A program made the position numbers and the translations under genes. Below, piece after piece: positions 5,968 to 58,239 of a stretch of 64,000 nucleotides of DNA. The notes below the pieces were generated by a model. It did not search any database. It had not been told where the DNA came from and worked only from the letters and a program-made list of their open reading frames with translations. Position 1 is the first letter of the stretch. Every line of letters begins with the position of its first letter. Origin of the DNA: Dehalococcoidia bacterium (GTDB lineage Bacteria > Chloroflexota > Dehalococcoidia > Bin125); contig OZ241982.1 of assembly GCA_965204335.1 (NCBI GenBank), forward strand, positions 775,462 to 839,461, in the 5' to 3' direction.

Positions 5968-6214
5968 CCCTCCCTCCGGTTCCCTCCCCCCGAGGGAGAA
6001 GCCTGCCCCGCACTTGATGCGGGGCCCAGACCTCCACCGTCGAACCCAAACCAAAGCTCTCCCCCAACTCCGCCATCCCCTCCGATCCCATCTCCCCCCG
6101 CCGCCAGGTGGGGGGAGATGCCGAAGGCAGAGGGGGGCTCCCTCCGCCCCAGACCCAACACCGAAGCCTGCCCCGCACTTGATGCGGGGATGTCACCAGG
6201 CGACAGAACGCCCC
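5968..6214. repeat. Composite interspersed repeat cluster (modules C-like, A, B, A plus an atgtcacNNNgacagaNNgcccc tail)
   Basis: ccccgcacttgatgcgggg occurs twice. The 60-nt cctccgatcccatctccccccgc...ggggggagatgccgaaggcagaggggggc block is nearly identical to 46657..46714. Confidence 0.85.
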
Positions 6215-15186: not shown

Positions 15187-16140
15187 CTAGATGCCGAATG
15201 CCTCGGCGTCGTCCTCGTCCTCGGCGGGGGCCTCGCCAATCTGCGCTGCGAGCGCGTCGAGTTGTTCCTCGTCGTACCAGTGCACCACGATCCGCCCGCC
15301 GCTGCTCGGTCCGTCGCGACCGACGCGAACCTCGACTTTCGTGCCCAGCGCCGCCTCGAGTCGCCGCACCGCGCCCTCGATGAGCGGGGATGATTCAGTG
15401 GCCCGGGAAACCGGCTCACCCGCCGGCTGCGTCAGTTTGCCGACGGCTTCCTCGAGCTGGCGCACCGACCACCCGAGTTCCGACGCGCGCTCGGCCAACG
15501 ACGGGCGCTCCGACATCGGCGCGGGCAGCAGGGCGCGGCCGTGACCCTCGCTCAGCGAGCCCGACTTGATCATCGCCTGCACCGACCCGGGCAGTTGCCG
15601 CAGCCGCAGCAGATTGGCCACCGCGGCCCGACTCTTTCCCACCTGCGCGGCAATCCGTTGCTGCGTCCATCCGGCCTCGCTGAGTTGTTCGAAGGCGTTG
15701 GCCAGTTCGATCGGATTCAGGTCCGATCGCTGCAGGTTCTCGACCAGCGCAAGCGTCAGCGTCTCCTGCTCGTCGTCGCCGGCATCTTCCTGGATCACGA
15801 TGGGGACCGTGTCGACGCCCGCGAGACCCGCGGCGCGCCAACGCCGCTCACCGGCGATCAACTCATAGCCACCCGACTCATCGGGCCGCACCAGCAGCGG
15901 CTGCAGGATCCCGTGCTCGCGGATGCTGGACGCCAGTTCCTCCAGTTGTTCCTGGTCGAAATCTTGCCGGGGCTGCGACGGATTCCGCGAGATCGCGCCA
16001 ATCGGCGCGCGCGTCTGTCCGTCTCCCGTGTCGGAAGAGCCCGGAATCAGCGCGTCAAGCCCTCGGCCCAGGCCTCGACGCGCCGGCGGCGCGCCGTCGT
16101 CAGACCGCAACGGTCCGAGTTTCGGCTTCGACGTCGTCAT
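15187..16140 (-). CDS. parB: Chromosome partitioning protein ParB/Spo0J
   Basis: ParB N-domain (GILQPLLVRP...YELIAGERRWRAA) and HTH. 4-nt overlap with parA. Confidence 0.9.
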   Translation of the reverse strand: MTTSKPKLGPLRSDDGAPPARRGLGRGLDALIPGSSDTGDGQTRAPIGAISRNPSQPRQDFDQEQLEELASSIREHGILQPLLVRPDESGGYELIAGERRWRAAGLAGVDTVPIVIQEDAGDDEQETLTLALVENLQRSDLNPIELANAFEQLSEAGWTQQRIAAQVGKSRAAVANLLRLRQLPGSVQAMIKSGSLSEGHGRALLPAPMSERPSLAERASELGWSVRQLEEAVGKLTQPAGEPVSRATESSPLIEGAVRRLEAALGTKVEVRVGRDGPSSGGRIVVHWYDEEQLDALAAQIGEAPAEDEDDAEAFGI

Positions 16141-16943
16141 GTCAGGACTCCATCCCCTACAGGGTTCGCATACAACTGCGACGCCGGCAGCGCCGAGAGA
16201 CGAACCAGCAACTCTCCGGCCAATTGCCGATACGCCTCGGCGCCCCGCGATCGGGGCGCGTAGTCGATGATCGGTCGCTGATGGCTCGGCGCCTCGGAGA
16301 GACGAATCGAGCGTGGGATGATCGTGTCAAACGTGGAACCGATATGCGACCTCAACTGAGCCGCAACGTCCTGCGACAGCCGCGTCCGTCCGTCGTACAT
16401 GGTGGCGACGACGCCCAAGAGCTGCAGTCCCGGATGCAGGTGCGTCTGCACGCGCCGGATCGTCTCCAGCAGCGCCGACAGGCCCTCGAGCGCCAGGTAT
16501 TCGCACTGCACCGGTGCGACCGCGGCGTCCGAGGCGACCAGCGCATTGAGCGTCATCAATCCCAGTGACGGACCGCAGTCAATCAGGACCAGGTCGTACG
16601 ACCCGGCCACCTCCGACAGTGCGCCGCGTAGGACGTACTCGCGCTGCGGCCTCGCGGCCAGCTCCAGCTCCGCTGCGACCAGGTCCATCGAGGACGGTGC
16701 GACGTCGAGGTCCGGCCAGACCGTCGAGACGATGCACTGACTGAGCGGAATCTCCGCCAGGAGCGCGTCATAGACATGGGCGCCCGAGGCCGCCACGCCC
16801 AGCGCAGACGTTGCATTGGCTTGCGCGTCGGCGTCGATGACCAGGGTGCGCCGGCCCATCTCCGCTGCGGCCGCCGCCAGGTTGACCGTCGTCGTCGTCT
16901 TGCCGACGCCGCCCTTCTGGTTCGCGACTGCGACCACGCTCAC
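16137..16943 (-). CDS. parA: Chromosome partitioning ATPase ParA/Soj
   Basis: Deviant Walker A motif AVANQKGGVGKTTT. Confidence 0.9.
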   Translation of the reverse strand: MSVVAVANQKGGVGKTTTTVNLAAAAAEMGRRTLVIDADAQANATSALGVAASGAHVYDALLAEIPLSQCIVSTVWPDLDVAPSSMDLVAAELELAARPQREYVLRGALSEVAGSYDLVLIDCGPSLGLMTLNALVASDAAVAPVQCEYLALEGLSALLETIRRVQTHLHPGLQLLGVVATMYDGRTRLSQDVAAQLRSHIGSTFDTIIPRSIRLSEAPSHQRPIIDYAPRSRGAEAYRQLAGELLVRLSALPASQLYANPVGDGVLT

Positions 16944-17020
16944 GTCACATCCACGTCAATGCGCCTCCATCGGCTATACGCCGAGGATAATGGTCAACCC
17001 GTTACGTCGCCTGTTGGCGG

Positions 17021-18097
17021 CTAGTCGTCACGGTACAGAATTCGCACGCGGCGCGACGAGCCTTCGCCCTGCGACTCCGTCATCAACTCCGGGTCATCCT
17101 GCAATTGCAAATGGATGATTCGGCGCTCGGCCGCCGGCATCACCCCCAGCGTGACCGGCTCGCCGCCCTCCCTCACCTCGGTCGCCGCCCGTTGCGCCAT
17201 CTCGACGAGCGCCGTCTCGCGGCGACGGCGGTAGCCGTCGACATCCACCGTGACCGGATTGTTGCCGTCGAGCGCCCGGCTGACGATCACATTGACGACG
17301 TACTGGAGCGCCGCAACGTGCGCGCCGTGACGGCCGATCAGCAGACCCAGATCCTCGTCGCCGACCGGTTGCACATCAAGCACCGCCACCGCGTGCCCGA
17401 GGCCGTCCATCGGGGTCTCAGGGTCGCGCGCCGTCACCTGCACATCGAACCCGAGCTGATGGGCGATGTCGGTCAGCACCTCGACGGCGAACTCGCGCGG
17501 TTGCTCATTGGGCTCGAAGTCCGGATCGGCGAGCAGCTCGAACGGCCCGATCGGTTGCCGGGCCGGTTGCCGCTCGCGCGCATCATCGCGGCTTCGACCC
17601 CGCCGACGGTTGCCCTGACGTCCACGCCCACGCTCGCGGCGCGGCGCGGAGGCCGGCGTCGCCGCGCGCGGTCGTGATCGTGACCGGTGATCGGGCTGGA
17701 CGGTCTCCTGGCTGTCCGAGTCCGAAGCGGACTCCCCCGCCGTCGGTTGGACCGTGGCCCGCCGACCGCCGGAGCGCCTGCCCCCGCCGGATCGGCCGCT
17801 GCGCGGCGCAGGGTCGGACGGCGATTCGCTCTCGACCTCGGTCAGATCCGAATAGTCGTCGATTCTCGGCAACGCGGGCGCGCCCGAACTGCGGCTGCCG
17901 CGCGTGCCGCCGGAACGCGGCGTGACGCGGACCAGCGACTGCGCGTGTCCGATCCCGAAAATTCCGGTCCGACCCTCCTCGAGGACCTCGACATCGACCT
18001 GCGCACGGCTCATTCCCAGCCGCCGCAGGGCCGCCTGGACGGCATCGTCGACGGTCCGTCCTGCCTGCTCGATTGCATCCCTGTTCGCCATGGCCAC
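17021..18097 (-). CDS. jag: Jag/KhpB-like RNA-binding protein (Jag_N, KH, R3H) with a long Arg/Gly/Ser-rich linker
   Basis: N-terminal Jag_N domain and C-terminal KH plus R3H (LLIGRHGAHVAALQYV...). Immediately downstream of yidC. Confidence 0.8.
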   Translation of the reverse strand: MAMANRDAIEQAGRTVDDAVQAALRRLGMSRAQVDVEVLEEGRTGIFGIGHAQSLVRVTPRSGGTRGSRSSGAPALPRIDDYSDLTEVESESPSDPAPRSGRSGGGRRSGGRRATVQPTAGESASDSDSQETVQPDHRSRSRPRAATPASAPRRERGRGRQGNRRRGRSRDDARERQPARQPIGPFELLADPDFEPNEQPREFAVEVLTDIAHQLGFDVQVTARDPETPMDGLGHAVAVLDVQPVGDEDLGLLIGRHGAHVAALQYVVNVIVSRALDGNNPVTVDVDGYRRRRETALVEMAQRAATEVREGGEPVTLGVMPAAERRIIHLQLQDDPELMTESQGEGSSRRVRILYRDD

Positions 18098-18170
18098 TTC
18101 TCCAACTGTGTCCTGTCCCGGGCGGCGCCGACGGCTCGCTCAGCGTGCCGGTGCGCCCGCTCTATTCATG

Positions 18171-19121
18171 TCATCGCGACCTGTTCGCCCGCCGGCGCCG
18201 CTGCCGACGGCGACGCGCCGCGCTGGTCTGGCGTCGCTGTGGACGCTCCTGTTCCTCCGCCGGCGGCGACTCGGCGTCCTCGGCCGCCTCGGCGCTCACT
18301 TCGACGGCTACGCTGCCGCCGCCCGCTGCGGCGGCAGCCGCGGCCGGAGCCGGCAGCGGCTCGGACGAGAGCAGCCACTTCCACGACCACTTCAGACCCT
18401 GGCGGTAGAAGTAGTAGTAGTAGGAGGTCAGGATCGTAAAGATCGAGGTCACCAACCAGTACAGACCCAGTCCGGCCGGCACCTGCAGCGTGAAGAAGCC
18501 GAACATGAACGGCATCATCCACAGCATCGTGCGGTTCATCGACTCGGACCGCTCATCCCGCGGACCCATCCGCGCGGTCGAGACCTTCTGCTGGATGTAG
18601 GCCGTCGCCCCGACCATGATCGCCAGCGGCAGCGACTGTTCCAACGACGAGGAACCGAGATCCCAGAAGAGGAAGTCGCGGTTGATCGGAATCGCGGACG
18701 TGATGTACGACCAGTCGTACAGGTCGCTCGAGAGCCGCAACAGCTGCTCCGGCGTATCGCCCAGCGTCCGCCGCAGCACCTGGTACAGCGCGATCCAGAT
18801 CGGCATCTGGACCAGCAACGGCCAGAGGCAGCCGAGTGGATTGAAGCCCGCCTCGCGGTAGACCTTCATCAACTCTTCCTGGCGGCGCTTGGGATCCTTG
18901 TACTTCTTCTGGATCTCCTGCATGCGCGGCTGCATCTCCTGCATGCCGCGCGTCGCCCGAAGCTGGCGCAGGGTCAGCGGATACGTCACCACCCGCACGA
19001 TCAGCGTGAACAGGATGATCGCCACCCCGTAGTTGTCGTCCACCGCGTGAGCGATCACGATCAGCCCGTTCATGATCGGGCCGATCAGAATGTCGTTCCA
19101 GATGAAGTCGAGGATGTCCAT
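18171..19121 (-). CDS. yidC: Membrane protein insertase YidC (short Gram-positive type)
   Basis: 316 aa with conserved YidC transmembrane core (RLLPVFEV-type regions) and C-terminal Ala/Arg-rich tail. Confidence 0.85.
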   Translation of the reverse strand: MDILDFIWNDILIGPIMNGLIVIAHAVDDNYGVAIILFTLIVRVVTYPLTLRQLRATRGMQEMQPRMQEIQKKYKDPKRRQEELMKVYREAGFNPLGCLWPLLVQMPIWIALYQVLRRTLGDTPEQLLRLSSDLYDWSYITSAIPINRDFLFWDLGSSSLEQSLPLAIMVGATAYIQQKVSTARMGPRDERSESMNRTMLWMMPFMFGFFTLQVPAGLGLYWLVTSIFTILTSYYYYFYRQGLKWSWKWLLSSEPLPAPAAAAAAAGGGSVAVEVSAEAAEDAESPPAEEQERPQRRQTSAARRRRQRRRRANRSR

Positions 19122-19137
19122 CGTCGGTGGGTATCAA

Positions 19138-31812: not shown

Positions 31813-31858
31813 GTTTCCGGTCCCCTCTCCCCGAGGGAGAGGGTTAGGGTGAGGGCCC
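31813..31858. repeat. Module C interspersed repeat abutting the tRNA 3' end
   Basis: gtttccggtcccctctccccgagggagagggttagggtgagggccc. Confidence 0.85.
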
Positions 31859-31875
31859 GGCCGCATCTGGAGCGC

Positions 31876-31950
31876 TGGAGCCGGCGGGGGGATTCGAACC
31901 CTCGGCCTACGGTTTACGAAACCGTTGCTCTACCTCTGAGCTACGCCGGC
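31876..31950 (-). tRNA. tRNA-Thr (anticodon CGU)
   Basis: Hand-folded 75-nt cloverleaf: acceptor GCCGGCG/CGCCGGC, D-arm GCTC-AGAGGTA-GAGC, anticodon arm ACGGT-TTCGTAA-ACCGT, T-loop TTCGAAT, discriminator U and encoded CCA. Confidence 0.85.
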
Positions 31951-32784: not shown

Positions 32785-32846
32785 TCCGGTCCCCTCTCCC
32801 CCCGCTCCGCGGGGGGAGATGCCGCAGGCAGAGGGGGCTCCCCAGA
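32785..32846. repeat. Module C-start / module B hybrid repeat
   Basis: ccggtcccctctccccccgctccgcggggggagatgccgcaggcagagggggctcccc. Confidence 0.85.
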
Positions 32847-33144
32847 ACCCGAACAAGAGGCCCCGAACTCATCGCACGGGAAGCCCGGCTCGCCCAGGCC
32901 GCATCAGACCCGAACTGGCGCCGGCGGCATGCGCCTTTACAGACAAGCCGGATACACAACGTCGCGCCTTCGAAGCGCGGCGGCGGGCGTAACTCAGGTG
33001 TAACCCAGAACCGTCTGGTACGGCTTGCGCTGCCCATACGATGATGCGCAGCAAGCATTGATCCTGCGTGGTCGGCGGCAGTGCGCGTGTGCGACTCCAA
33101 CCGGCCCCCACTTTGACCGCGCAGAGCAAAGAGAGGCACAGCCC

Positions 33145-34563
33145 ATGGCAACCCTTGGCGACATTCAGAACCTGATCCAGGATCAGGGCATTCGTCGCGT
33201 CGACCTGCTGGTCACCGACCTGATCGGCCGCTGGCAGCACTTCAGCATTCCTGCCTCAAAGGTCGACGAAGACCTCGTCGAGCGCGGCCAGGGCTTCGAC
33301 GGCTCCTCGTTGCGCGGATTCCAGAGCATCGACGAATCCGACATGCTGCTCCGCCCCGACCTCGACAGCGCCCGGATCGATCCAACCATCGACACGCCCA
33401 CGCTCACCTTCATCTGCGATGTGCACGATCCGATCACCGGCGAACGCTACAGCCGCGACCCGCGCTACGTCGCGACGAAGGCCGAGCAGCATTTGATCGA
33501 CTCCGGCATCGCCGACCAGGTCTTCTTCGGCCCCGAGCTCGAGTTCTTTTTGTTCGACCACGTCCAGTTCCAGCTCTCGATCAACCAGGCCTTCTACGTC
33601 GTCGAGTCGGACGAGGCCGACTGGAACAGCGGCCGAGACGAGGACGACCACAACCTCGGCTACAAGATCCCGCCCAAGCAGGGCTACTCGCCCACCGCCC
33701 CCTTCGACACGCTCAGCGACATCCGCTGGGAGATGGCCGACGCGATGGGCAAGGTCGGGATGGAACTCGAAGTCCATCACCACGAGGTCGCGACCGGCGG
33801 CCAGGGCGAGATCGCCACGCGCTTCAACACCCTGCGCACCAAGGCCGACGAGACCCAGTGGTACAAGCACATCGTCCGCAACGTCGCCAGGGCCCACGGC
33901 AAGAGCGCGACCTTCATGCCCAAACCGCTCTTCGGCGACAACGGCACCGGCATGCACTGCCACCAGTCGTTGTGGAAGGACGGCTCCCCCCTCTTCTACG
34001 AAGGCGGCAAATACGCCGACCTCTCCGACACGGCCCGCCACTACATCGGCGGCCTGCTCAAGCACGGCTCCGCCCTGCTCGCCTTCTGCGCGCCGACCAC
34101 CAACTCGTACAAGCGACTCGTGCCCGGCTTCGAAGCGCCGATCTACCTCGCCTACTCGCAACGCAACCGCTCCGCCGCGGTCCGCATCCCCACCTACGAG
34201 TCCTCGCCCAACAGCAAGCGTCTCGAGTTCCGACCCCCCGACGCCTCGGCCAACACCTACCTCGCCTTCTCGGCGATGCTGATGGCCGGCCTCGACGGCA
34301 TCCGGAACCAGATCGAGCCGGGCGAGCCGGTCGACACCGACATCTACGAGCTCTCCGTCGAGGAGGCGGCCGGCATCCCCTCGGTGCCCCACTCGCTCGA
34401 AGGCTCGCTCGAAGCGCTGGCGGCCGATCACGACTTCCTGATGACAGGCGGCGTCTTCACCCAGGACCTGATCGACGAGTACCAGGACTTCAAGCTGACC
34501 GAGGCCCGCGACGTCTTCCAGCACCCCGTCCCGGCCGAGTTCTTCCACTACTACCACATCTAG
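33145..34563 (+). CDS. glnA: Glutamine synthetase type I (GlnA1-like, adenylylation-site type)
   Basis: GS-I beta-grasp and catalytic domains. Tyr in DIYELSVEE matches the adenylylation loop. AGAGAGG Shine-Dalgarno. Confidence 0.9.
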   Translation: MATLGDIQNLIQDQGIRRVDLLVTDLIGRWQHFSIPASKVDEDLVERGQGFDGSSLRGFQSIDESDMLLRPDLDSARIDPTIDTPTLTFICDVHDPITGERYSRDPRYVATKAEQHLIDSGIADQVFFGPELEFFLFDHVQFQLSINQAFYVVESDEADWNSGRDEDDHNLGYKIPPKQGYSPTAPFDTLSDIRWEMADAMGKVGMELEVHHHEVATGGQGEIATRFNTLRTKADETQWYKHIVRNVARAHGKSATFMPKPLFGDNGTGMHCHQSLWKDGSPLFYEGGKYADLSDTARHYIGGLLKHGSALLAFCAPTTNSYKRLVPGFEAPIYLAYSQRNRSAAVRIPTYESSPNSKRLEFRPPDASANTYLAFSAMLMAGLDGIRNQIEPGEPVDTDIYELSVEEAAGIPSVPHSLEGSLEALAADHDFLMTGGVFTQDLIDEYQDFKLTEARDVFQHPVPAEFFHYYHI

Positions 34564-34565
34564 CA

Positions 34566-34716
34566 TCCGGTCCCCTCTCCCTGAGGGAGAGGGCTAGGGT
34601 GAGGGCCCCGCTCCATGGGTGAAGATGCCGCGACTCTTCCCCTCTCCCCCCGCTTCGCGGGGGGAGCCTGCCCCGCACTTGATGCGGGGATGTCACGTAG
34701 TGACAGAGGGGGGCAA
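34566..34716. repeat. Composite repeat C plus B plus A plus tail between the two glnA genes
   Basis: ggtcccctctccctgagggagagggctagggtgagggcc, ...ctccccccgcttcgcggggggag, cctgccccgcacttgatgcgggg, atgtcacgtagtgacagaggggggc. Confidence 0.85.
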
Positions 34717-34735
34717 CCGCTGAACCCCAAATGAC

Positions 34736-36085
34736 ATGACCACCCTCGACCCGGACCCCAACGCGCCACCCAGCGAGCATCAGCACGTCCTCAACGCCTG
34801 CCGCGAGCACGACGTGCGCTTCGTGCGGCTCTGGTTCACCGACCTCCTGGGCCAGCTCAAGTCGGTCGCGATCACGATCGACGAGTTGCCCGCCGCCCTC
34901 GAAAAGGGCGTTGAGTTCGACGGCGCCTCGATCGAGGGCTTCGCCAGGCACGACGAGTCGGACATGGTCGCCCTGCCCGATCCGGACACCTTCGTCGTCC
35001 TGCCCTGGCGTCCCCAGCAACACCGGGTCGCCCGGATGATCTGCGACATTCACCGCCGCAACGGCGACCCGTTCGAAGGCGACCCGCGCCGCGTCCTGCG
35101 TCGCCAGCTCGAATCGGCCCAGCAGCGCGGTTACACCTTCTACGTCGCGCCGCAGATCGAGTACTTCTACTTCCGCGCGCCCGATGATCCCTCACCGCTC
35201 GATTCCGGTGGCTACTTCGACCTCTCGCCCCTCGACACGGCGACCGACCTCCGCCGCGAGACCGTGCTGACGCTGGAGGAGATGGGCATCGGCGTCGAGT
35301 CCTCTCACCACGAGGCGGCGCCCTCGCAGCATGAGATCGACCTGCGCTACACCGACGCCCTGACCATGGCCGACCAGGTTATGACCACGCGGCTCGTGGT
35401 CAAGGAAGTCGCAATCAAGCAGGGCGTCCACGCGACCTTCATGCCGAAGCCGCTCAACGGCGTCAACGGGTCGGGGATGCACGTCTACCTGTCGCTCTGG
35501 GACCACGAACAAAACCTGTTCTACGAAGAGGGCGGCGGTCTCTCGGTGATCGCGCGCTCGTTCCTCGCCGGCCTGCTCAAGTACACGCCGCAGTTCACGC
35601 TGATCACCAACCAGTGGTCGAACAGCTACAAGCGCCTCGCCCCCGGCACCGAGGCGCCGGTTTACCTGACCTGGTCGCACGCCAACCAGTCCGACCTCGT
35701 GCGCATCCCCGAGTACGAGCCGGGCGACTCCGAATCGACGCGGCTCGAGTACCGGGGCGCGGATTCGGCCACCAACCCTTACCTCGCGTTCTCAGCCTTC
35801 CTCGCCGCCGGCCTGCGAGGCATCGACGAGGGTCTGACGCCGCCGCCGGCCGCCGAAGACAACGTCTTCGAGCTGACGCCGACCCAGCGCTCCGCACGCG
35901 ACATCGTCGAGATGCCCACCACGCAGGGCCGGGCGATCGAGGCCTTCTCCAAATCGGATCTGATGAGGAACGTGTTGGGCGAGTACGTCTGGTCAACGGT
36001 GCTGCAGAACAAGCGCCTCGAGTGGGACGAATACCGCTCGCAGGTGACCGACTACGAACTGCGCCGTTACCTGGCCGTGCTGTAG
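34736..36085 (+). CDS. glnA2: Glutamine synthetase type I, GlnA2-like paralogue
   Basis: N-terminus VRFVRLWFTDLLGQLKSVAI...GVEFDGASIEGFAR is highly similar to actinobacterial GlnA2. No adenylylation Tyr motif. Confidence 0.85.
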   Translation: MTTLDPDPNAPPSEHQHVLNACREHDVRFVRLWFTDLLGQLKSVAITIDELPAALEKGVEFDGASIEGFARHDESDMVALPDPDTFVVLPWRPQQHRVARMICDIHRRNGDPFEGDPRRVLRRQLESAQQRGYTFYVAPQIEYFYFRAPDDPSPLDSGGYFDLSPLDTATDLRRETVLTLEEMGIGVESSHHEAAPSQHEIDLRYTDALTMADQVMTTRLVVKEVAIKQGVHATFMPKPLNGVNGSGMHVYLSLWDHEQNLFYEEGGGLSVIARSFLAGLLKYTPQFTLITNQWSNSYKRLAPGTEAPVYLTWSHANQSDLVRIPEYEPGDSESTRLEYRGADSATNPYLAFSAFLAAGLRGIDEGLTPPPAAEDNVFELTPTQRSARDIVEMPTTQGRAIEAFSKSDLMRNVLGEYVWSTVLQNKRLEWDEYRSQVTDYELRRYLAVL

Positions 36086-46656: not shown

Positions 46657-46714
46657 TCCTCCGATCCCATCTCCCCCCGCTGTGCGGGGGGAGATGCCGA
46701 AGGCAGAGGGGGGC
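46657..46714. repeat. Module B interspersed repeat upstream of the nuo operon
   Basis: cctccgatcccatctccccccgctgtgcggggggagatgccgaaggcagaggggggc. Near-identical to 6078..6137 apart from the loop. Confidence 0.85.
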
Positions 46715-46766
46715 AGCGGCTTTGCCCACAGGTCGGCAGTGGAGTTGCTTGCAAAGGATGTCGAAG

Positions 46767-48506: not shown

Positions 48507-48676
48507 TCCCTCTCTCCCCCCGCTCCGCGGGGGGAGATGCCGAAAGCCCGCCCCCGGCCTGAACGGGGGGCAGAGGGGGCTCCCGCCAGGCAACCAACAG
48601 CCACCTCCCTCTCCCTCCGGGAGCGAGAAACCGAACCTCCCTCTCCCCCTGGGAGAGGGCCGGGGTGAGGGCTCCG
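48507..48676. repeat. Composite repeat cluster (module B, a cccccggcctgaacgggggg hairpin, ctccctccgggag, module C)
   Basis: tccctctctccccccgctccgcggggggagatgccgaaagcc ... cctctccccctgggagagggccggggtgagggctcc. Confidence 0.85.
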
Positions 48677-49748: not shown

Positions 49749-49791
49749 TTCAGTCCCCTCTCCTTCCGGGAGAGGGCTAGGGTGAGGGTCC
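49749..49791. repeat. Module C repeat in the 40-nt convergent gap. It overlaps the valS stop codon and last four codons.
   Basis: tttcagtcccctctccttccgggagagggctagggtgagggtccc. The valS C-terminal GPSP plus TAG stop are read from ggtgagggtccc on the minus strand. Confidence 0.85.
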
Positions 49792-52566
49792 CAACGCGCC
49801 GATACGCGATTCGATGTCGGCCTGCTGACGCTGGAGGTCGGCGGCGAGTTCTTCCGCCTGCTTGACGACCTCGGCCGGCGCCTTCGAGCGGAAGCCTTCG
49901 TTGGCCAGCTTCGCCTCCGCACCCCTCAGCCGCTTGAGGATGCCTTCGAGGTCCTTGTTCAGCCGGGCTCGCTCCTGCTCCAGATCGATCAGGCCGCCCA
50001 ACGGCAGGATGACTTCTGCGGCGGGCAGCACGGCAGACGCGATCTGGTCGGTGGGAGCCTGGGCTCGCTCAGCAACGATGGTCAGCGGTCGCGCACGGGA
50101 CAACACCTCGACGATCGGAGCCGACGCGCTCACGGCCTGAGCCACGTCCGCCTGCGGCAACACAAACGCTTCCGCCCACTGACCAGCCTGCACGCGGTAG
50201 TCGGCCCGAACCTGGCGGACTGCGGTAACGATCCCCTGCACAGCCGCGAACGCCTCCTCGGCCTCCAAGTCGCGTGAGGCGTCGCCAGGTTGCGGGAAGC
50301 GAGCTCCGATCAGCGCAGTGGCGTCGGCCGCCTCGCCGAGGTGAGGCCGAAGCTGCTGCCAGATCGCCTCGGTCACGAACGGCATCCACGGGTGCAGCAG
50401 ACGCAGCCCATCGTCGAGCACCTTGGTCAACACCGGCAGCGGCGTGAGATCTCCGTTGCGCAGGCGAACCTTGCTCGCCTCGACGTACCAGTCGAAGAAC
50501 TCGCCCCAGAGGAAGTCCTGGATCTGCCGGCCGGCCTCGCCGAGTTGGAACTGCCGCAGCAGTTCATCGACCGAGTCGGTCACCGCCTGCAGCCGCGAGA
50601 GGATCCAGCGATCCTCCAGCGCGGAGCCCCCCTCTGCCTGCGGCATCTCCCCCCGCGAAGCGGGGGGAGCAGGAGCCTGGGCATCGGCAATCTCGCCCAG
50701 CACGAACTTGGCGCCGTTCCAGAGCTTGTTGGCGAAGTTGCGCGAGCCTTCCAGCCGCTCGTCCGTCAGCCGCATGTCGTTGCCTGGCGTCGACCCCGTC
50801 GCCAACGTGAAGCGCAGGGCGTCCATCCCGTACTGGTCGGCCTTTTCCAGTGGGTCGATCACGTTGTCGAGCGACTTCGACATCTTGCGGCCCTGCGCGT
50901 CTCGGACCAGACCGTGCAGGTAGACCGTGTGGAACGGGGCCGAACCCATGTTGTAGCAGCCCAGCATGATCATCCGCGCGACCCAGAAGAAGAGGATGTC
51001 GTAGCCGGTTTCCATCACCGACGACGGGTAGAACCGCGCCAGGTCCTCCGAGTCGGCGTCGGGCCAGCCCAGCGTCGAGTGCGTCCACAGGCCCGACGAG
51101 AACCACGTGTCCAGCACATCCGGGTCCCGGACGAAGTCGGCGTCGTCGCACCACGGGCACTCGGTCGGGTCGGTCATCGCAACAATCGGGCGGGCGCCTT
51201 CGTCGATCGTGATCTGGCCGTCGTCCCCGGTGATGATCGCGTCCCCGTCGCAGCAGCGGCAGTACCAGGCCGGAATCCGGTGTCCCCACCAGAGCTGCCG
51301 CGAGATGCACCATGGCCGGATGTTGTCCATCCACTGCAAGTAGACGTTCTTCGAGCGTTCGGGAACGATCCGGACCTCGTCCTCGCGCACGACCCGCGCC
51401 GCTTCGGCCGCCATCTCGTCGGTGTCGACGAACCACTGGTTCGACACCAGCGGCTCGACCACTACGCCGGAGCGCTGCGAGTGCCCGACGTTGTGGATGT
51501 GCGTCTCGGTCTCGACCAGGTAGCCGTCCTCCTCCAGGTGCTGAGCGACCAGTTCCCGCGCCTCGTCCCGATCCATGCCCGCGTAGAGACCCGCCTCCGC
51601 CGTCAGCGTGCCGTCCCAGTCGACCACGCGGATCGGCTCCAGCCCGTGCCGTTCGCCGATCTCGAAGTCGAGCTGGTCGTGACCGGGCGTGATCTTCAGC
51701 GCGCCGGTGCCGAACTCCAGGTCGACGCCCGAGTCGGCGATCAGCGGAATCAGCCGGTCGAAGCCCCGCAGCGGCAGCCGAACCCGACGGCCCAGGTGCG
51801 GCTGCCAGCGTTCGTCGTCGGGATGGACGGCGATAGCGACATCTGCCGGAATCGTTTCGGGCCGCGTCGTGGCGATCACCACCCCGTCGTCCAGCTCGTT
51901 GCCGCGCTCGTCGACGAACGGGTAGCGCACATGCCAGAGCTTGCCTTCTTCCTCCTCGTACTCGACTTCCACGTCGGACAGCGCGGTCAGCATCTGCGGG
52001 TCCCAGTTGATGATCCGAGCACCGCGGTAAATCTTGCCGTCCTGGAACAGGTCGACGAACGTCTTGCGGACAGCGTCGCGCGGCGTCGGATCGAGCGTGA
52101 ACGCCGTGCGCTCCCAGTCGCAGGACGCACCCATCCGCCGCGCCTGCGAGGTGATCCGAGGTCGGGTCACCCCGACCCACTCCCAGACACGCTCCTCGAA
52201 CGCCTCGCGGCCAAGGTCGTGACGGGTCATCCCTTCGCGCGCGAGCTGCTGCTCGACCACGCTCTGCGTCGCAATCCCGGCGTGGTCCAGGCCAGGCAGC
52301 CACAGCGTCGGCTCACCGAGCATTCGGTGCCAGCGGATCAGGGCGTCCTCGATCGTCAGCGTGACCGCATGGCCCAGGTGCAGCACGCCGGTGACGTTGG
52401 GCGGCGGCATGATCACCGTGAACGGTTCCCGGTCCCCGTCCGACTCGGCCGGACGGAACCAGCCGTTGTCCTCCCAGAACGCATAGATCGGATCCTCGAC
52501 GATCGAGGCGTCGTACGCGCCGGTCAGATCGCTCAGGATTGAGAGGTCGAACGCTGTGCTGGTCAC
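49777..52566 (-). CDS. valS: Valyl-tRNA synthetase, containing an in-frame copy of the module B repeat
   Basis: HIGH motif (PPPNVTGVLHLGHA), KMSKS motif, editing domain, anticodon-binding DRWILSRL. Residues ...APPASRGEMPQAEGGSALE are encoded by the repeat at 50620..50666. Confidence 0.9.
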   Translation of the reverse strand: MTSTAFDLSILSDLTGAYDASIVEDPIYAFWEDNGWFRPAESDGDREPFTVIMPPPNVTGVLHLGHAVTLTIEDALIRWHRMLGEPTLWLPGLDHAGIATQSVVEQQLAREGMTRHDLGREAFEERVWEWVGVTRPRITSQARRMGASCDWERTAFTLDPTPRDAVRKTFVDLFQDGKIYRGARIINWDPQMLTALSDVEVEYEEEEGKLWHVRYPFVDERGNELDDGVVIATTRPETIPADVAIAVHPDDERWQPHLGRRVRLPLRGFDRLIPLIADSGVDLEFGTGALKITPGHDQLDFEIGERHGLEPIRVVDWDGTLTAEAGLYAGMDRDEARELVAQHLEEDGYLVETETHIHNVGHSQRSGVVVEPLVSNQWFVDTDEMAAEAARVVREDEVRIVPERSKNVYLQWMDNIRPWCISRQLWWGHRIPAWYCRCCDGDAIITGDDGQITIDEGARPIVAMTDPTECPWCDDADFVRDPDVLDTWFSSGLWTHSTLGWPDADSEDLARFYPSSVMETGYDILFFWVARMIMLGCYNMGSAPFHTVYLHGLVRDAQGRKMSKSLDNVIDPLEKADQYGMDALRFTLATGSTPGNDMRLTDERLEGSRNFANKLWNGAKFVLGEIADAQAPAPPASRGEMPQAEGGSALEDRWILSRLQAVTDSVDELLRQFQLGEAGRQIQDFLWGEFFDWYVEASKVRLRNGDLTPLPVLTKVLDDGLRLLHPWMPFVTEAIWQQLRPHLGEAADATALIGARFPQPGDASRDLEAEEAFAAVQGIVTAVRQVRADYRVQAGQWAEAFVLPQADVAQAVSASAPIVEVLSRARPLTIVAERAQAPTDQIASAVLPAAEVILPLGGLIDLEQERARLNKDLEGILKRLRGAEAKLANEGFRSKAPAEVVKQAEELAADLQRQQADIESRIGALGPSP

Positions 52567-56280: not shown

Positions 56281-56421
56281 CCAGCCGTCCCCAATCCAAT
56301 CAGCCCCGCATCAGGGCATACATATCCAGTGTAGCCGCGACAGAGATGCCCGTGAATCGCCTCAGCCGCAAGCCACCCGGTTGCGCTGCCCAGTTCCGCT
56401 TCACAGCCCCGCCAGGTTCCC

Positions 56422-57490: not shown

Positions 57491-57565
57491 CCCTCTCTCC
57501 CCTCCCTTCCCCTCTCCCCCCGCTTCCAGCGGGGGGAGATGCCGCAGGCAGAGGGGGGCTCCCAA
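57491..57565. repeat. Module B interspersed repeat between prs and a small hypothetical gene
   Basis: ccctctctcccctcccttcccctctccccccgcttccagcggggggagatgccgcaggcagaggggggctccc. Confidence 0.85.
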
Positions 57566-57643
57566 ACCTCCGCATGTCCCTATTCAACATCAGAACCTGA
57601 TAAATTCAGAACATACATACTCCACGAGACAAGGAACACCCCG

Positions 57644-57964
57644 ATGCCCAATCCCTACCATTTCCGCGCCAGGATCGACCGACTCTGGCGGCGCGCCAAC
57701 GCCCCCGGCCCCGGCTACAAGCAACTCAACGCCCTCGACGCCGTCGTCCGGGAACTGTTCGCCCCGAACGAGCGAGCCCGCCGCAACTATCAGCTCTACC
57801 TCGCCACCGACCCCTACGACGTCGCCCGCCACCTCCTCCGAGACCTCTACGACCGCACCTCCCCTTCCCCCTCTCCCCCCGCGCCTATTCAAGTCGCCCC
57901 CGCGCAGGCGGGGGCCGCACCGACTGAGGATGACCCGCTCGACGAAGACGACGACCCCTGGTAA
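57644..57964 (+). CDS. Small hypothetical protein with a repeat-derived Pro/Ala-rich acidic C-terminus
   Basis: 106 aa. AT-richer promoter-like region upstream. Residues SPSPSPPAPIQVAPAQAGAAP are encoded by module B-like sequence ccccttccccctctccccccgcgcc...cccccgcgcaggcggggg. Confidence 0.5.
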   Translation: MPNPYHFRARIDRLWRRANAPGPGYKQLNALDAVVRELFAPNERARRNYQLYLATDPYDVARHLLRDLYDRTSPSPSPPAPIQVAPAQAGAAPTEDDPLDEDDDPW

Positions 57965-58035
57965 CCGCCAACCTCCTCCCAGGTCCCCGCTCGTTTTTTC
58001 TCTCAGCGGATCACCCGCCTCCGGCCCCGCCGTGC

Positions 58036-58120
58036 CTGCCCCGCACGACAATGCGCCTCCCCCTTCCCCTCTCCCCCCGCCTGCGGCGGGGGGAGAGGTC
58101 ACGTAGAGACAGAGGGGGGC
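58036..58120. repeat. Degenerate module A plus module B plus tail repeat upstream of groES
   Basis: cctgccccgcacgacaatgcg...ctccccccgcctgcggcggggggagaggtcacgtagagacagaggggggc. Confidence 0.8.
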
Positions 58121-58239
58121 ACGCCGAGAGGCAGCTCCCCCCAACCTGATAGCGCGGCTCCCTCAGTTCAGTGGATTACGCAACGACGGCATGGCAGCGT
58201 CATCGCGACGTAATGACCGCTTCGGTTACTCCCGCTTGC

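Follow-up and report, generated by a model that had tools for sequence, protein, structure and literature searches.

How does a short palindromic repeat that otherwise lies between genes come to be part of the reading frame of an essential enzyme? The question is raised by a 64,000-nucleotide stretch of a Dehalococcoidia genome (contig OZ241982.1, positions 775,462 to 839,461, forward strand), referred to here as the window, in which one copy of a repeat that we call family B is found inside valS, the gene of valyl-tRNA synthetase (ValRS). From the comparisons described below it is quite probable that this segment is a tolerated and translated passenger copy of a repeat resembling repetitive extragenic palindromic (REP) sequences or transposable elements of the miniature inverted-repeat type (MITEs), located in a permissive loop that has been remodelled repeatedly.

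The window has a GC content of 66.6% and contains about nine intergenic copies or derivatives of family B, all of them between coding-like open reading frames (ORFs). Hairpins made of a C-run, a loop and a G-run are found 14 times, 13 of them in the approximately 7 kb of intergenic DNA and a single one, the valS copy, in the approximately 57 kb of coding DNA. The valS copy is a 47-mer, CTCCCCCCGCTTCGCGGGGGGAGATGCCGCAGGCAGAGGGGGGCTCC, on the minus strand at 50623-50669 (window coordinates), sense to the gene. According to pattern searches, it shares 44 of 47 nt with the intergenic copy at 2233-2279 (three mismatches), and within it a 24-nt core, GGGGAGATGCCGCAGGCAGAGGGG, recurs without change at 2250, 32813 and 57533 and with a 1-nt difference at 6112 and 46688. 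Neither the search with the 47-mer nor that with the core gave a single chance match when run on 100 dinucleotide-preserving shuffles. The 47-nt repeat is read in frame as PPASRGEMPQAEGGS, residues 634-648 of ValRS, within an intact ORF of 929 amino acids (49777-52566, minus strand). An original prediction, made from the letters of the window, had proposed both the match to the intergenic module and the in-frame reading, and both hold; the sequence that it quoted is present on the minus strand, but the interval that it assigned, 50620-50666, is displaced by 3 nt.

By direct reading the valS copy can be divided into three parts, all on the minus strand. Hairpin 1 (CTCCCCCCGC-TTC-GCGGGGGGAG, 50647-50669) consists of the C-run, the loop and the first G-run. 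It is followed by the inner mini-hairpin TGCC-GCA-GGCA (50635-50645), a GNA triloop closed by a C-G pair, and by the second G-run GAGGGGGG (50627-50634), which also appears in the co-variation discussed below and which, together with the preceding A, is the mirror image of the tail of the first G-run. The original prediction also expected a strong C6GC/GCG6 hairpin in the valS mRNA. A stem of 10 bp is indeed predicted there, but the 101-nt mRNA region around the insert folds no better than its shuffles (z = -1.15) and is ordinary for its composition. Direct reading shows no U-run 3' of the hairpin, so it is not an intrinsic terminator. With the element comes an ATG that is in frame and immediately follows the purine tract GGGGGGAG (50644-50652, minus strand), and the spacing seems too short for an internal start driven by a Shine-Dalgarno sequence.

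The host protein is a valyl-tRNA synthetase, a class Ia aminoacyl-tRNA synthetase. It contains the Pfam domains tRNA-synt_1 (PF00133, residues 27-600), Anticodon_1 (PF08264, 652-799) and Val_tRNA-synt_C (PF10458, 861-925), it matches the T. thermophilus ValRS structure 1GAX over residues 13-916 (E = 1e-215), and the KMSKS and PPPNVTG..HLGH motifs are invariant across the ValRS alignment. An AlphaFold2 model built with 64 homologues (mean predicted local distance difference test, pLDDT, 85; predicted template modelling score, pTM, 0.79) superposes on 1GAX in Foldseek with template modelling (TM) scores of 0.80/0.86.

The insert is located in the linker GEIADAQAPAPPASRGEMPQAEGGSALE (residues 624-651; 50614-50697, minus strand), which alignments of 120 and 43 ValRS, together with a coil in the model, place between the helices ...NKLWNGAKFVL and DRWILSRL... 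The model helices at 602-628 and 650-671 have a pLDDT of 95-97, and the residues between them, 629-649, form a coil with a pLDDT of about 55-60, falling below 50 at 643-646. Against 1GAX the alignment contains a 12-residue gap at APPASRGEMPQA, between residues 597 and 598 of that structure, and the position is variable in length across the 120 aligned ValRS. From the model, the linker is predicted to be a poorly ordered coil that joins the first two helices of the anticodon-binding helix bundle, and by the low pLDDT, the gap and the variable length the insertion site appears structurally permissive. Both the length and the sequence of this position vary among ValRS proteins, which argues that the enzyme tolerates the insert. 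It is also known that insertions in the helix-bundle domain distinguish ValRS enzymes (PMC11571807).

The direction of the event can be read from the relatives. A protein search gave ValRS of Chloroflexota/Dehalococcoidia whose identity decreases gradually from 98% to 55%, and a genome scan gave 49 loci from metagenome-assembled genomes (numbered with an L below), many of whose records are complete chromosomes; isolate names such as IRC, RHO, SB and 'bin125' suggest that these come from sponge metagenomes. ValRS relatives at or below about 84% identity, among them all deeper-branching Dehalococcoidia (74-84%), have a linker of 19-26 aa without repeat-like DNA, and L035, a crown-clade species at 91% identity, has a short repeat-free linker too. 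These short linkers can be aligned to each other and are of the type GEI[AS]QAE.[SA]I.D.S.A.ALE. The ancestral type has 20 aa, 8 fewer than the 28 aa of the window. The 20-kb flanks of valS are essentially devoid of the repeat families in the short-linker relatives, while the flanks in the crown clade contain them. Since the deep relatives and L035 lack the segment and the flanks lack the repeats, the repeat moved into the gene.

The same family B insert is present at the same codon in L170 (98% protein identity, on a 2.9-Mb contig), L171, L002, L005, L006, L008 and L042. This shows that the insert is older than the splits between these species, or that it is recurrent. Several elements of the original prediction can be judged from these comparisons. 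Its placement of the insert in a variable linker, just before the DRWIL helix, agrees with the start of Anticodon_1 at residue 652 and, on the structural model that it called for, with the gap to 1GAX and the low-confidence coil. Its view of the segment as a repeat-derived insertion is borne out by the alignment, in which the deep relatives and L035 have the short linker; orthologues from repeat-free relatives that carry the segment were looked for, and such orthologues lack it. The assembly artefact that it raised as an objection is contradicted by the independent assemblies discussed below. It did not include the recurrent use of the linker by several repeat families, the second repeat at the valS stop codon or the precedents known from elsewhere.

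The linker of valS is a hot spot for more than one family. Variants of family B, some of them in tandem, are found in the linkers of L001, L010, L011, L013, L032 and L047, and family C (GGCCCCCTCAGTCGCTCCGCGACAGCTCCCCCAGAGGGGGAGC) is found in those of L003, L004, L009, L018, L024, L030 and L040. Family D is present as an inverted pair, GTAGGGGCAGCCCTTGTGGCTGCCC...GGGCGACCACAAGGGTCGCCCCTAC, in L015, L021, L037 and L039, with halves in L007 and L022, and it carries the GTAG tag of classical REPs, GTAGGGGCAGCC...GGTCGCCCCTAC. Read on the opposite strand, family C is the family B scaffold with a different inner hairpin; judged by this likeness, it belongs to the same super-family as B, inserted antisense. 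The family C copy in valS of L003 itself contains a nested 19-nt hairpin (module N). Intergenic copies exist for families C, D and N too.

A bootstrapped neighbour-joining tree, calculated after removal of the linker columns, places different families in sister species. The pair L001 (B) and L004 (C) has a bootstrap of 100%, the pair formed by the window sequence, labelled WIN (B), and L003 (C with N) has 86%, and one clade with 100% support mixes B plus C (L010) with D. Between L001 and L004 the entire linker of about 80 nt is different, which implies that the replacement of linker alleles by recombination adds to the pattern besides insertion; counting one independent insertion per tree tip was dropped because of this pair. 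We claim at least three independent origins in the linker, corresponding to families B, C and D, and in addition nested and tandem events. The comparison shows that one and the same linker holds different elements across sister species and has been turned over repeatedly.

A second in-frame hot spot is seen in the N-terminal part of ValRS, between WF.PAE... and EPFTVIMPPPNVTG. Here L005 (at about 10145) contains a family B insert, SPFQGEMPQAEGV, L008 (at about 10129) a family C insert, SRSATAPPARG, and L015 a longer one. The ValRS of the window has no insert at this site.

Family B has no stop codon in any of the six frames, family C is open in five of six and family D in two, and valS uses an open frame for each of the three. 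All insert-bearing linkers, at least 25 of varied length and family, keep the reading frame, which argues for translation. Further, comparison between species gives 76-98% identity for the 45-nt insert, much of whose variation falls in the 3-nt loop, while the four-fold sites of valS are 50-67% identical, except for two close pairs with 78% and 85%. As unrelated peptides are tolerated in sister species, this conservation does not result from selection on the protein. Either the repeat pool was copied recently into the site, by re-insertion or by gene conversion, or the nucleic acid itself is under selection.

The repeats are also turned over outside valS. The intergenic copies of family B in the window are all on the plus strand. 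They comprise a tandem of a half and then a full copy (2189-2279), single copies at 6090-6141, 32794-32840, 46669-46716 and 57512-57561, and a copy at 48512-48590 in which a 23-nt hairpin (module N, CCCCCGGCCTGAACGGGGGG, 48551-48570) is nested in the loop of the inner hairpin. In two derivatives the scaffold is retained: at 34642-34715 (repeat-search families D1, D6 and D17) the inner hairpin is replaced by two other hairpin modules, and at 58069-58121 (families D2 and D17 of that search) there is a different inner hairpin. In comparison with L170, at about 97% DNA identity, only the window has module N in the copy at 48512-48590; it also has an extra module of about 26 nt beside this copy and a repeat-rich expansion of about 500 nt at 57559-58056, between the PRPP-synthetase and GroES genes. 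A module related to that at 48551-48570 is the one nested in the valS copy of L003, and it seems that small hairpins are inserted into loops of hairpins already present. High-GC intergenic copies as a whole are not biased in orientation: the gene downstream lies on the strand of the copy in 22 cases and on the other strand in 16. No RAYT or transposase gene is found among the window ORFs or in the flanks of L170/L171, a view that covers 64 kb of a genome of about 3 Mb.

A repeat also reaches the other end of valS. Module A/D4 (CCCTCACCCTAGCCCTCTCCC-GGAA-GGAGAGGGGAC; 49749-49799, minus strand; family D4 of the repeat search) overlaps the 3' end of the gene, where it takes the place of the original stop: the codons for PSP (49780-49788) and a new TAG (49777-49779) come from it. 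The protein of the window ends in ...GALGPSP, and nearly every full-length relative in ...ESRIGALG. The module sits at a deletion junction, where a VanZ-like gene of about 550 bp, located in L170/L171 between valS and the SIS-domain gene, is missing in the window. The ValRS of the window therefore carries two repeat-derived pieces.

Some neighbouring features of the window can be added. A 1.9-kb gene of L170 (609 aa, no Pfam match) upstream of secA is missing at 56336-56415. A tRNA-Thr(CGU) gene (31876-31950, minus strand) adjoins a copy of the A/D4 module at 31816-31866. Two tandem glutamine synthetase paralogues (33004-34563 and 34724-36085) are separated by a 160-nt spacer that consists almost entirely of repeat modules (34566-34715). 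Genes for a parA-type ATPase, jag and yidC are clustered at 16137-19133, with the intergenic B copies on both sides all on the plus strand; this gene set is often located near the replication origin.

Family B is not restricted to this lineage. An exact-match scan of metagenomes for its 26-nt core, GGGGGAGATGCCGMAGGCAGAGGGGG, returned at least 120 stretches (L050-L169), and a scan of viral contigs gave L172-L179. The core is unchanged on contigs ranging from 33% to 72% GC, and is preceded by the C-run hairpin in most copies; on AT-rich contigs the core often lies 5-20 nt upstream of an ATG. It is found in frame in other genes as well. In an arginyl-tRNA synthetase (ArgRS) of Patescibacteria (L065 684-2291, minus strand, P0121) it is read as ...YLQYAHARACSVLGKSSSPAKGEMPKAEGVKPLPTLPLAGEGG..., together with a second hairpin module. 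Its location there is after the YLQYAHAR helix, in the loop following the first helix that leads into the anticodon-binding domain. None of 119 ArgRS relatives contains the core-derived segment; most have a linker that is 15 aa shorter, and a few have other short inserts at this place. Further in-frame copies are found in an NPPF-motif methyltransferase (L088, at about 3104; antisense, SPPLPSASPPKGE) and in two orthologous proteins of about 1850 aa (L074, at about 3557, and L099, at about 2112), where the core occupies the same place in different frames, read as GGDAAGRGG and GEMPQAEG.

Searches for a known identity of the element were negative. Rfam 15 gave no family at gathering score on the element, its only matches being tRNAs and one ribosomal-protein leader elsewhere, and a permissive Rfam scan gave only sub-threshold chance matches on it. 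None of the papers in the library that was searched quotes the core sequence. By blastn, the element had one chance-level match in a collection of 72,556 plasmids and none in a collection of 50,697 phages, and a plasmid or phage origin was rejected on these results. A riboswitch or element of the 5' untranslated region was also rejected as a general explanation: the downstream genes are unrelated, the copies of high GC are not biased in orientation (22 versus 16) and Rfam gives no match.

The anatomy of the element was derived from 162 distinct copies at 134 loci, a set whose pattern is partly fixed by the metagenome scan. The order is TCT-C(4-8); a loop mostly of 2-8 nt, sometimes with a nested hairpin; G(4-8)-AGA; T-GCC-GNA-GGC; and A-GA-G(4-8). 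The inner loop is G-N-A in 161 of the 162 copies, a figure partly set by the search pattern. Copies of families B and C, such as that at 32794-32840, have a second purine tract, AGAGGGGG, that mirrors the first, GGGGGAGA, instead of complementing it. Where the scaffold is free to vary, i.e., in the Chloroflexota loci and the viral contigs, three types are seen: TCT/AGA/AGA, CCT/AGG/GGA and GCT/AGC/TGA. In every set, the first member pairs with the second by Watson-Crick rules, and the third fits the base triplets T/A/A, C/G/G and G/C/T of an antiparallel purine-motif triple helix. These scaffold types are also seen in combination with the inner hairpin of family C. This co-variation represents few independent events and could be a lineage effect. 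A three-way junction, in which the second G-run forms Watson-Crick pairs with an upstream C-run, was considered and rejected. It is possible in the window copies (CCCCTCT), but the upstream C-run is absent in most lineages, so this pairing does not explain the mirror symmetry.

From this anatomy it can be speculated, with considerable doubt, that families B and C form one undescribed class of mini-elements found across phyla and not an ordinary REP private to one lineage. The conserved unit of this class would consist of a pyrimidine run (TCTC5), the purine run that pairs with it (G5AGA), an exchangeable mini-hairpin serving as a turn, and another purine run (AGAG5) that mirrors the first. A single-stranded fold of a hairpin plus a third strand could be what is recognised or copied, and small hairpin modules would nest in the loops of elements already present. 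Being free of stops in all six frames, the scaffold could spread into loops of ValRS, ArgRS and other essential proteins of distant phyla. If the mirror-repeat scaffold were a real structural unit, one would be dealing with a new kind of small nucleic-acid element, mobile or structural.

Other explanations for the segment in valS have to be weighed against that of a passenger copy. The most serious is that the insert is kept for a function, either as an mRNA or single-stranded DNA hairpin or third-strand fold that affects translation, pausing, stability or replication, as a contact surface of the protein, or as an internal start at the ATG after GGGGGGAG. The identity of the insert DNA well above the synonymous sites of valS, with much of the change in the 3-nt loop, would fit such a role, as would the invariance of the 26-nt core over so wide a range of GC contents and the co-variation of the C-run with the first and second G-runs. 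However, sister species have an unrelated peptide, the opposite orientation, another family or no insert at all, so that no given peptide or structure is required. The mRNA region folds no better than its shuffles, the intergenic copies are not oriented towards genes, and recent copying from the repeat pool explains the conservation equally well. We therefore consider a function of the insert unlikely. It is far less likely still that the segment is in the gene but not in the protein, being removed from the mRNA or bypassed by the ribosome. GC-rich 'byp' inserts are bypassed in some yeast mitochondria, and a GC-rich hairpin insert in a coding region formally resembles them. Yet the at least 25 insert-bearing linkers that keep the frame and avoid the stop-containing frames are expected only if the segment is translated, and no take-off and landing codon pair is evident.

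Two further alternatives are extremely improbable. If the repeat family derived from the gene, a piece of valS having been copied outwards, the peptide would be ancestral. Nothing beyond the sequence match itself speaks for this, and it is contradicted by the different but alignable short linkers without the segment in the deeper relatives and L035, by the fact that over 120 unrelated contigs from metagenomes, and genes other than valS, contain the element, and by the flanking element sequence that intergenic copies carry and valS lacks. Repeats are a classic source of mis-assembly, and one may ask whether a repeat was collapsed or mis-joined into valS in the consensus. The ORF is, however, continuous and in frame, and the same insert occurs at the same codon, with lineage-specific substitutions, in at least seven assemblies made independently by different projects, some of them complete chromosomes or megabase contigs, which effectively excludes such an artefact.

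Some observations do not fit easily with a passenger copy. Neither a target-site duplication nor a clean pair of empty and filled sites was found at the valS site. The filled linker is just 8 aa longer than the ancestral type whereas the element encodes 15 aa, which implies an insertion accompanied by a deletion, or an exchange of the linker as a whole. The 64-kb window encodes neither a transposase nor a RAYT, so that mobility is deduced from the distribution of the copies and from the polymorphism between strains. Finally, the conservation of the insert beyond that of the four-fold sites could mean nucleic-acid selection and not neutral carriage.

We suggest that the passenger copy could have arisen as follows. 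A small mobile repeat, composed of a C-run, a short loop, a G-run, a mini-hairpin with a GNA loop and a second G-run, would have joined the reading frame of valS. Most copies that land in genes would be purged by selection, and only in-frame, stop-free copies in permissive loops would survive. The linker could then be turned over by new insertions, including nested hairpin modules, by tandem duplication and by recombination of whole alleles. The peptide of the insert would be without a specific function, and the high conservation of its DNA would most likely result from recent or repeated copying out of the genome's own repeat pool.

The locus provides a natural case of selfish repeat DNA that has turned into coding sequence in an essential enzyme of translation, and the dense series of relatives displays the ancestral state, several filled states and ongoing turnover at a single loop. 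In the class Ia anticodon-binding bundle, the loop that connects helices one and two emerges as a natural permissive site of use for engineering, and an analogous loop is used in the ArgRS of another phylum. For annotators and phylogeneticists there is also a caution, as linker segments in the proteins of these symbionts are repeat-derived and exchanged by recombination.

Among known systems, the GC clusters of fungal mitochondria are likewise very short GC-rich hairpins that spread, nest and sometimes occur in coding regions. However, they are organellar and reside in AT-rich genomes, and some of them are bypassed and not translated. To our knowledge there is no evidence of a common origin with family B.

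MITEs found in genes, such as the Correia, ERIC and BOX elements (PMC10969869), are small non-autonomous elements that can make in-frame fusions, as family B does. MITEs, however, have terminal inverted repeats matching those of a parent insertion sequence and target-site duplications, neither of which was found for family B: its copies have no flanking direct repeats, and the gain of a nested module between strains occurred without an obvious duplication. With the REPIN/RAYT system (Bertels & Rainey 2011, PMC3116915; PMC3337134) the elements described here share that they are non-autonomous, multi-copy and vertically persistent palindromes, often in inverted pairs. REPINs are described as lineage-specific, while the core of family B is identical on contigs from 33% to 72% GC, and no RAYT gene is found in the 64-kb window or the 20-kb flanks examined (genome about 3 Mb).

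The GTAG/CGTC-tagged REPs are palindromes of 20-40 bp that are mostly intergenic, with a minority in ORFs as single units or dimers, as for family B; the intragenic ones encode 7-30 aa in several phyla (Di Nocera et al. 2013, PMC3733652). Family B is a short imperfect palindrome, multi-copy and mostly extragenic, as REPs are. Unlike the tagged REPs, families B and C lack the GTAG/CGTC tag and have a mirrored purine tract and an exchangeable inner hairpin, while family D (L015, L021, L037, L039), being a GTAG-tagged inverted pair, fits the GTAG REP/REPIN type. The list of intragenic REPs includes the beta subunit of glycyl-tRNA synthetase (GlyRS; X. oryzae, E. litoralis) and isoleucyl-tRNA synthetase (IleRS; E. 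litoralis) (PMC3733652, supplementary file 4). ValRS is not in that list, and a single loop with several families in sister species is not described there.

A close parallel is provided by the Rickettsia palindromic elements (RPEs), palindromic repeats that are translated in frame within many housekeeping genes (Ogata et al. 2000, 2002, summarised in PMC10969869). Like family B, they are short palindromes present both between and inside genes, in frame and compatible with the fold and function of the host protein, and both are selfish DNA filtered by selection. RPEs are about 100-150 bp long and occur in Rickettsia only, whereas family B is about 45-50 bp, is built differently (C-run, G-run, GNA mini-hairpin, mirrored G-run) and has a core found across phyla; the two would not be expected to be related in sequence. 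In valS, the segment is a copy of a multi-copy and mostly intergenic repeat, the ORF is open through it, and repeat-free orthologues lack it. The phenomenon is thus already known from RPEs and from intragenic REPs, including those in GlyRS and IleRS, and ValRS is a new example of it.

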